64,000 bases of DNA from contig JAKAFY010000002.1 of assembly GCA_021817785.1 (NCBI GenBank), positions 11,750 to 75,749 of the forward strand, in the 5' to 3' direction. Position numbers and translations under genes: made by a program. Under the pieces are notes generated by a model that worked only from the letters and a program-made list of their open reading frames with translations, had not been told where the DNA came from and did not search any database. This DNA comes from a bacterium. GTDB taxonomy: Bacteria; Patescibacteriota; Microgenomatia; UBA10105; UBA927. The first letter of the stretch is position 1, and every line of letters begins with the position of its first letter. Positions 32,608 to 32,699 of this stretch are shown here, piece after piece.

Positions 32608-32699
32608 GTCATTGCGAGTCCCGGCGTTGCCGTGGACGAAGCAATCTGTGACTCGAAATAGATTGCCGCGTCGCTCGAAAGCTCGCTCCTCGCAATGAC
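32608..32699. repeat. family-B nested palindromic element (92 bp) overlapping the stop codon of the 32609-33340 gene
   Basis: Perfect 11-bp terminal inverted repeats GTCATTGCGAG/CTCGCAATGAC, with the internal inverted repeat GCAATCT...AGATTGC. Confidence 0.65.

Follow-up and report, generated by a model that had tools for sequence, protein, structure and literature searches.

A 92-bp palindrome in a Patescibacteria genome is probably an inverted doublet of a dispersed ~40-nt REP-like unit

Results

A palindrome composed of two outward-facing units

The stretch of DNA analysed here (the window) spans 64,000 nucleotides of contig JAKAFY010000002.1 (forward-strand positions 11,750 to 75,749; assembly GCA_021817785.1) from a bacterium of the Patescibacteriota. 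At 32608-32699 of the window lies a 92-bp palindrome that overlaps the stop codon of a minus-strand open reading frame (ORF), and a second copy lies inside lepA. Our analysis suggests that the 92-bp element is probably an inverted doublet of a ~40-nt unit resembling repetitive extragenic palindromic (REP) sequences, a dispersed structural or selfish repeat that is a passenger at this locus and not a master copy. The features of the two copies are:

32608..32699, no strand: inverted doublet (92 bp) of two REP-like units with heads outward and a 12-nt spacer; from sequence, folds and the family profile
32607..32647, plus strand: left unit; from sequence, its own fold, and the family-wide unit architecture and covariation
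32607-32610, plus strand: left unit head, TGTC
32611-32615 with 32641-32645, plus strand: left unit basal stem, ATTGC paired with GCAAT
Left unit junction GAG / CGAA, and tail CT
32619-32636: left unit distal hairpin, TCCCGGC-GTT-GCCGTGGA
32648..32659: variable spacer between the units, the loop of the central hairpin when both units pair; from folds
32660..32699, minus strand: right unit; from sequence and folds
32699-32697, minus strand: right unit head, GTC (as a tetranucleotide, GGTC)
32696-32692 with 32666-32662, minus strand: right unit basal stem, ATTGC with GCAAT
Right unit junction GAG / CGCG, with the distal hairpin within 32670-32688
13909..13986, plus strand: second doublet, 78 bp, in frame in lepA, 26 residues

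An earlier interpretation made from the letters of this DNA (the sequence-only reading) had described perfect 11-bp inverted ends and a nested inverted repeat at 32608-32699, and both are confirmed: GTCATTGCGAG (32608-32618) recurs as its exact reverse complement CTCGCAATGAC (32689-32699), and GCAATCT (32641-32647) faces AGATTGC (32660-32666). What was taken for transposon-like terminal inverted repeats (TIRs) is instead the head and half-stem of two inverted ~40-nt units, which in a metagenome scan for one arm variant occurred mostly singly and which show no target-site duplication (TSD), and the "nested" repeat is the other half-stem and tail of the same units. Folding predicted a four-way junction for the 92-bp copy on each strand. 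The two strands gave -44.4 and -41.4 kcal/mol as RNA (z = -4.9 and -3.4) and -25.0 and -26.1 kcal/mol as DNA (z = -4.3 and -5.1), and the left unit in isolation folded at -10.1 kcal/mol (z = -2.9).

A family profile trained solely on copies from other organisms found just two places in the window, 32608-32699 (E = 2.7e-11) and 13909-13986 (E = 6e-10), with a third-best match at E = 8; these matches are thus not due to chance. The exact 11-mer also occurs at one further place in the window, 13909-13986. That the 92-bp element is the longest and most symmetric copy of its family, as the sequence-only reading held, is true but trivial with only two copies in the window.

The repeat unit is constrained in structure

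The basic repeat is a ~40-nt unit, YGTC-ATTGC-GAG-(variable hairpin)-CGNN-GCAAT-CYC, because an arm-only scan of metagenomes found mostly lone units and a Helicobacter canis prophage likewise carries one (cCGTCATTGCGAGCGTAGCGAAGCAATCCa). The unit runs from an unpaired YGTC head through a 5-bp ATTGC/GCAAT basal stem, a purine-rich GAG junction opposite CGAA, CGTG or CGCG, and a distal hairpin to a CYC or CCA tail; the distal hairpin is free in sequence, ranging from a GCGNAGC mini-hairpin to GC stems of up to 8 bp. The arm-only scan used the pattern GTCATYGCGAGTCCCG-N4-16-GGACGNNGCRAT and gave at least 120 loci and 130 listed matches, of which 102 had no partner end within 125 nt. This pattern represents one arm variant, for which the excess of singles over doublets holds.

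Covariation proves the basal stem of the unit. Among the single units listed, the ATYGC/GCRAT pair was T-A in 116 and C-G in 14 (from 10 loci) and was never mismatched (Fisher p = 5e-19), under a search pattern that let Y and R vary independently and allowed all four combinations. Pairing between units was also maintained: positions 2-4 after GCAATC were complementary in 187, 190 and 138 of 218 distinct doublets, against 112, 99 and 79 after permutation.

The doublets compared share one layout, consisting of an end, a side segment, CG(AA/TG/CG)GCAATC, a variable middle, GATTGC..., a side segment and an end. Side segments take two forms. The first is CGNAGC, which with the preceding G reads GCGNAGC, with all four bases found at N; we take GCGNAGC to be a very stable GNA-loop DNA mini-hairpin. 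The second comprises GC-rich hairpins of unrelated sequence with perfect stems, such as GCCCC-AAA-GGGGC, GCTCGCC-GCA-GGCGAGC and CCCACCT...AGGTGGG. Mean minimum free energy over 75 distinct side segments of at least 13 nt was -2.9 kcal/mol, compared with -1.2 kcal/mol after shuffling.

The bases bordering the ends are also biased. Among the matches listed, the base before GTC was mostly C (84) or T (36) in the 127 doublets, and T (82), C (39) or A (9) in the 130 single units; C or T preceded the doublet in 120 of 127 cases and G or A followed it in 123. The flanks thus prolong the palindrome, and the head therefore reads CGTC or TGTC. Tails of the 130 single units listed were most often CTC (62), followed by CCC (20), CTT (18) and CCA (10). 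In the 218 doublets, mostly in alphaproteobacterial ones, CCA was the commonest reading after GCAAT; the window copies have CTG or CTA, and CTC, and CCA is found in neither.

A kink-turn (K-turn) or ribozyme-like reading of the GAG/CGAA junction was dropped, as the CGTG and CGCG variants break tandem G.A geometry and the element is symmetric on both strands. In three alphaproteobacterial loci, two of them from Bradyrhizobium, a longer side arm is itself a palindrome nested in one unit (L008 101-215, L049 6251-6370, L053 4514-4630), a sign that further insertions may be accepted at the distal hairpin position. Short tandem arrays of the unit or its head occur in other organisms (L286 8-339, L284 592-666, L076 553-730, L062 2729-2900), with examples of 148-nt and 39-nt periods and of GTCATTGCGAG fragments repeated next to a full doublet; the family expands locally too, besides dispersing.

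Copies are dispersed across phyla and phage genomes

A scan of one genome per species with GTCATTGCGAG-N40-70-CTCGCAATGAC gave at least 120 loci. Isolates among the matches listed belong to Bradyrhizobium, Sphingomonas, Sphingobium, Pedobacter, Mucilaginibacter and Flavobacterium, and metagenome-assembled genomes (MAGs) to Chloroflexota, Patescibacteria (including Berkelbacteria), Planctomycetota, Microcoleus, Desulfobacterales, Gammaproteobacteria, Rickettsiales and others. The same end pattern was present in at least 120 IMG/VR contigs, in which copies are flanked by genes with PHROG matches to major head protein, terminase large subunit, baseplate, tail fibre and tape measure. A BLAST search of plasmids with a Bradyrhizobium copy returned three records only (Methylosinus, Novosphingobium). 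The unit is a dispersed, structure-constrained repeat that occurs singly or as a doublet, between genes or in frame, in many phyla and in phage genomes. The sequence-only reading had assigned the palindrome to a dispersed repeat family, and the scans of genomes, metagenomes and viral contigs bear this out, with hundreds of copies in existence; its own ground for refutation, a lack of further copies, thus falls away.

Among the genome loci listed, copies lay between tandem genes in 52 cases, convergent genes in 25 and divergent genes in 11, and inside long ORFs in 26, with a median distance of 29 nt to the nearest gene 3' end, all under a crude ORF model. This gene context is REP-like.

Flanks and neighbours argue against a cut-and-paste transposon

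Perfect 11-bp inverted ends, small size and multiple dispersed copies are what a classical miniature inverted-repeat transposable element (MITE) would display, that is, a derivative of a DDE-transposase insertion sequence (IS) moved by cut-and-paste through its 11-bp TIRs, with the 92-bp copy as a near-intact master. The flanks of the listed copies point elsewhere: TSDs of 2-5 bp were observed 5, 3, 0 and 0 times, against 2.1, 1.1, 0.4 and 0.05 expected, none of them beyond chance, and the flanks extend the palindrome instead of forming direct repeats. Single ends with their own stem-loop, which are unexpected for a TIR element, were the commonest form in the arm scan. Furthermore, no transposase lay between or beside copies in ~370 loci, no autonomous IS with the same ends was present in the fetched loci, and the lepA copy, which is ancient, has diverged from the 92-bp one. 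We thus regard a MITE as highly improbable.

The neighbourhoods of copies gave no candidate for a mobilising gene. Clustering of ORFs around the genome and viral loci revealed no enriched neighbour family except phage structural genes, and copy pairs 0.4-4 kb apart in the fetched loci enclose ordinary or phage structural genes and no transposase. In a tblastn search, seven REP-associated tyrosine transposase (RAYT) and TIRYT proteins from the supplement of Di Nocera 2013 had no match in 2.88 Mb comprising all loci (~400 copies) and the window.

We also considered that the element might serve other mobile elements as a structure-specific site of recombination or integration, comparable to integron attC or to Neisseria dRS3, which serves IS110-type recombinases and filamentous phage. 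Like attC sites, the doublets are imperfect palindromes with conserved outer boxes and a variable terminal structure, of a layout that would be read as a folded single strand. The lack of TSDs and the presence in phage genomes would fit such a role, and 16 of 126 copies among the matches listed lay within larger flanking inverted repeats (permuted mean 6.2, maximum 13). In addition, Di Nocera 2013 (PMC3733652), in the passages used here, equates the Neisseria CGTC-1 repeats with dRS3. Against this, no integrase or recombinase is enriched beside the copies in the genome and viral loci, the copies do not form cassette arrays, and attC sites are not known to lie in frame within housekeeping genes. 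The attC R-box consensus is RYYYAAC/GTTRRRY, from which the conserved boxes of the present unit differ. Together, these comparisons make a recombination site very unlikely.

The lepA copy did not arise recently from the 92-bp copy

The lepA ORF (12628-14646, plus strand; 672 aa) contains a doublet that encodes VIASETKQSHDDNEIATSRDGGTRDD and has one mismatch in its right end. Its heads read TGTC on each side. The left unit is without a long distal hairpin; in the right unit, on the minus strand, the basal stem is the covarying ATCGC/GCGAT form and GTCCCGC-GATG-GCGGGAC makes up the distal hairpin. What the two window copies have in common is the set of family modules and the base of one side hairpin, GTCC...GGAC, an arm type that the arm-only metagenome scan found to be widespread.

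Relatives of this LepA revealed both empty and filled sites. The closest relatives (P0002, P0003 and P0005; 78-82% identity) are without the insert, and in P0004 (76% identity) the insert occupies the same codon, its left arm identical (GTCATTGCGAGTGAAACGAAGCAA) and its right end decayed; P0013 and P0017 also have an insert at this site. The element peptide was found at residues ~400-447 in 7 of the 120 closest LepA relatives, two of which have it at ~68 as well. Those of the closest relatives with a source name are labelled Patescibacteria group bacteria. From this distribution among relatives, the lepA insert is old or recurrent, a variable loop accommodates it, and it did not arise recently from the 92-bp copy. 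The sequence-only reading was right to place the two window copies in one family. Its suggestion that the 92-bp copy is the master form and source of the lepA insert was rejected, as the aligned copies share little beyond family-wide modules and P0004 has an orthologous insert.

LepA residues ~66-88 (12820-12890) form an extra segment of ~22 residues, KNENGKTKNEHTQHISDFPS. P0017 and P0036 carry a second palindromic element (VIARSESSSDVAIRLDNGIASPSGRTRND) at the exact site of this segment, and the segment may be the decayed remnant of an earlier insertion of the family.

Overlap with the stop codon is probably incidental

The features of the ORF that meets the 92-bp element are:

32609..33340, minus strand: ORFan ORF, 243 aa, of which only about the first 115 codons (33340 to ~33000) look coding
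32609..32611, minus strand: TGA stop codon of the ORF, part of the conserved unit head (CAATGAC)
32917-32894, minus strand: terminator-like hairpin followed by CTTGGCTTTT (T-run), inside the non-coding-like part of the ORF and upstream of the element; from a consensus scan only

A search of 5.8 billion proteins for homologues of this ORF returned only the protein itself; it and LepA are encoded on contig DAIENL010000002.1 of GCA_027341155.1 and in several ENA and Logan assemblies. Given the lack of homologues, we judged the extent of the ORF by codon statistics. Codon usage is gene-like for codons 1 to ~115 and scores about zero or negative from ~33020 onward, with values of -0.2 to -0.29 in the final windows against a training mean of 0.17. 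All three minus-strand frames are open for ~100 codons, from ~33000 to ~32710. The long ORF is a by-product, because the sequence is stop-poor and hairpin-rich.

The sequence-only reading had placed the stop codon inside the left inverted repeat, and the TGA does lie within the left 11-mer. Its further claim that the element supplies the end of the gene holds in a mechanical sense only: the last 30 codons and the stop are element sequence (SLRGASFRATRQSISSHRLLRPRQRRDSQ*), in an ORF that has no homologue and whose tail looks non-coding. One reading phase through the element always ends at the TGA of the far head (SLRG...SQ*), and the VIA...RND and HCE...LAMT phases are open. This pattern explains the stop-codon overlap at this locus as well as the viability of in-frame inserts, and the overlap is probably incidental.

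The ORF tail and the element belong to ~1.6 kb (31410-33000) that contains no convincing gene amid otherwise gene-dense DNA. Strong hairpins occur in this stretch at 32729-32753, 32757-32799, 32859-32885 and 32883-32928, and long hairpins at 31764-31850 and 32301-32385 have weak miRNA-precursor-like Rfam matches.

REPs of E. coli stabilise upstream mRNA and affect translation near a stop codon, and the 92-bp element could similarly be a functional structured RNA (a terminator, mRNA 3' stabiliser or small RNA), here ending a minus-strand operon at 34858-32609. The very stable folds, the compensatory stem changes, the position at the end of a minus-strand string of genes, and the enrichment of copies near gene 3' ends, with convergent sites outnumbering divergent ones, are consistent with this idea. 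However, folding is equally good on either strand and copies are found in both orientations, which points to symmetry at the level of DNA, and essential genes such as lepA carry in-frame copies. Rfam searches gave no match at the gathering score or at E <= 5 for 32608-32699 and 13909-13986, nor at E <= 1 for copies from eight other organisms. Downstream of the element on the minus strand there is no canonical T-tract; a scan for terminators made no call at the element, and its separate candidate lies upstream, at 32917-32894. We thus consider a structured-RNA function unlikely to be the explanation of the element.

The unit stands alongside CGTC-tagged REPs

Pfam had no match to the three-frame translations of the element or to the ORF. 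Searchable full-text literature gave only unrelated primers for the DNA words and peptide motifs, and nothing relevant on in-frame palindromic repeats in Patescibacteria or the candidate phyla radiation. Of the repeats described so far, the CGTC-tagged REP superfamily (Di Nocera, De Gregorio & Rocco 2013, BMC Genomics 14:522, PMC3733652) comes closest; our comparison draws on part of that paper, and what follows holds for that part. The superfamily includes the Rickettsia palindromic elements (RPEs) RPE-4 and RPE-6 and the Neisseria dRS3. Its members have an unpaired CGTC head (variants TGTC and CCTC), a stem starting with AT and a 3-nt CCA tail, mostly form inverted dimers, and are found between genes and in frame within genes in several phyla, mostly in Alphaproteobacteria, with no dedicated transposase. 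CGTC-1 to -4 have continuous 8-9-bp stems and 4-5-nt loops, as in CGTC-ATTCCCGC-GAAA-GCGGGAAT-CCA, which encodes the peptide VIPAKAGI, and ATTGCCGGG-CTTGA-CCCGGCAAT, which encodes VIAGLDPAI.

Like these REPs, the present unit has a YGTC head and a stem starting with AT, forms inverted dimers, lies in frame within some genes and has no linked transposase in the loci covered. The tail gives a mixed picture: many copies end in CCA, including the alphaproteobacterial ones with GCAATCCA, and CTC, CCC or CTT is commoner than CCA in the monomers listed from the arm scan. In contrast, the basal stem of the present unit is 5 bp long, its conserved junction is GAG/CGNN and its free distal hairpin spans 7-30 nt. 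None of the peptides VIARSEATKQS, HCEERSDEAI and SLRGAKRRSN that it encodes is in the intragenic list in PMC3733652; Patescibacteria, Chloroflexota, Planctomycetota and Cyanobacteria lie outside the five phyla listed there; and phage genomes, which host the present unit, are not mentioned in the passages compared. By these descriptions, we place the present unit alongside CGTC-1 to -4, as a new variant that belongs to none of them. Units of the classical GTCATT-stem-loop-stem-AATC form were found neither in the 120 genome loci listed nor in the window.

RPEs, reported by Ogata and colleagues in 2000 and 2002, are said to be small palindromes inserted in frame in conserved protein genes that remain intact, with the encoded peptide reportedly located in a surface loop. 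RPE-1 is said to be 100-150 bp long and confined to Rickettsia. The lepA insert behaves alike, in that it is in frame and adds 26 residues to a protein whose orthologues P0002, P0003 and P0005 are without it; the present family differs in being shorter than RPE-1 and in occurring in many phyla.

The third comparison is with the REP/REPIN-RAYT system of GTAG REPs (Bertels & Rainey 2011; Nunvar 2010). In both, the unit is a short hairpin whose conserved 5' tetranucleotide stays unpaired, and both form inverted doublets that fold as a larger hairpin, lack TSDs, are biased to gene 3' ends when extragenic, and are presumed to move as single-stranded DNA. The head is YGTC in the present unit and GTAG in REPINs, and no RAYT-like gene lies near any of the ~400 present copies or in the window. 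Furthermore, REPINs are lineage-specific and vertically inherited, whereas the present head and basal stem are kept across phyla and in phages. These likenesses suggest that the 92-bp doublet is REPIN-like in layout and RPE-like in behaviour.

Other repeats in the window

A 42-nt palindrome, TTTGTCAAnTT..CCAATTGG..AAnTTGACAAA, occurs four times (16543-16584, 17195-17236, 39293-39334 and 53362-53403). At least two of the copies precede an ORF start (16609 and 17252, both plus strand) by 15-25 nt, and the other two are in short gaps between minus-strand ORFs. With TTGACA on both strands, the repeat resembles a shared promoter or operator palindrome, and it may be the other repeat family of the sequence-only reading.

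A degenerate tandem copy of tRNA-Arg(CCU) lies at 60782-60850 beside the tRNA-Arg at 60852-60924 (minus strand), with 83% identity over 54 nt and the same anticodon-loop sequence; neither ARAGORN nor Rfam called it. At 35813-35863, just outside the minus-strand ORF 36569-35907, about six copies of the 8-nt TTAYTTSG form a tandem array bracketed by CTGCCGG...CCGGCAG. Upstream of lepA, a 54-nt direct repeat (10984-11037 and 12036-12089) has 89% identity and copies 1052 bp apart.

Discussion

Our preferred explanation of 32608-32699, an inverted doublet of a dispersed REP-like unit, suggests the following course of events. The repeat would be selfish or structural DNA, non-autonomous and spreading in the form of a folded single strand, and an enzyme acting in trans would read its head and stem, as RAYTs are thought to do on GTAG REPs. 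Phages or prophages may ferry the repeat between lineages. At this locus, the doublet would have come to sit in the ~1.6-kb non-coding stretch downstream of a small ORFan, whose frame would be open by chance and closed by the TGA of a unit head. If transcribed, the doublet would form a very stable 3' structure that could impede 3' exonucleases or ribosomes, like E. coli REPs, and could incidentally protect or terminate the upstream transcript. Such a local 3' effect would be a side effect and not the reason that the element exists.

Several points weigh against this explanation. The element may have a real role at 32608-32699, for instance as a terminator or mRNA stabiliser, and some of the covariation could reflect inherited palindromic subfamilies and not independent compensatory changes. 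We infer mobility in the source genome only from the filled and empty lepA sites of relatives, and the copy count for that genome covers the 64-kb window. A search for a mobilising enzyme around the fetched loci found none, and a metagenome scan for the empty site of the 32608 copy gave no match. Many of the high-GC "viral" contigs are alike and may be alphaproteobacterial gene transfer agent or prophage regions; in BLAST searches with an alphaproteobacterial copy from a Roseiarcus MAG, matching cultured-phage (INPHARED) records numbered six and were partial only. Finally, the unit may already fall under one of the IUPAC consensus sequences of Di Nocera 2013 (PMC3733652), of which we compared the part described above.

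A bolder interpretation, which we put forward as a speculative possibility, is that the unit is an undescribed structured DNA repeat, carried by phages across phyla, that writes peptides of 26-30 residues into essential proteins of Patescibacteria. Its YGTC head, ATTGC/GCAAT stem and GAG/CGAA junction would form a fixed recognition module with a freely evolving distal hairpin, served by a new trans-acting mobilisation system, very widespread or phage-encoded, rather than being a relic of RAYT-type REPs.

Under the preferred reading as a passenger REP-like doublet, the overlap with a stop codon is a predictable by-product, since one phase of the unit is invariably closed by the TGA in a head. 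For annotation, the element yields recurrent spurious or extended ORFs and "hypothetical proteins" recognisable by the motifs VIARSE...RND, HCEE...LAMT and SLRG...SQ*, and a family profile would clean gene calls in thousands of MAGs. CGTC-type REPs, as described in the part of PMC3733652 compared here, have no known mobilising enzyme, and the sharp module, clean covariation, wide host range and phage carriage of the present unit make it a good handle for finding one. The element also accounts for part of the length differences among LepA proteins of Patescibacteria. Palindromic selfish DNA seems to be tolerated within essential genes even in the streamlined genomes of Patescibacteria, as it is in Rickettsia.

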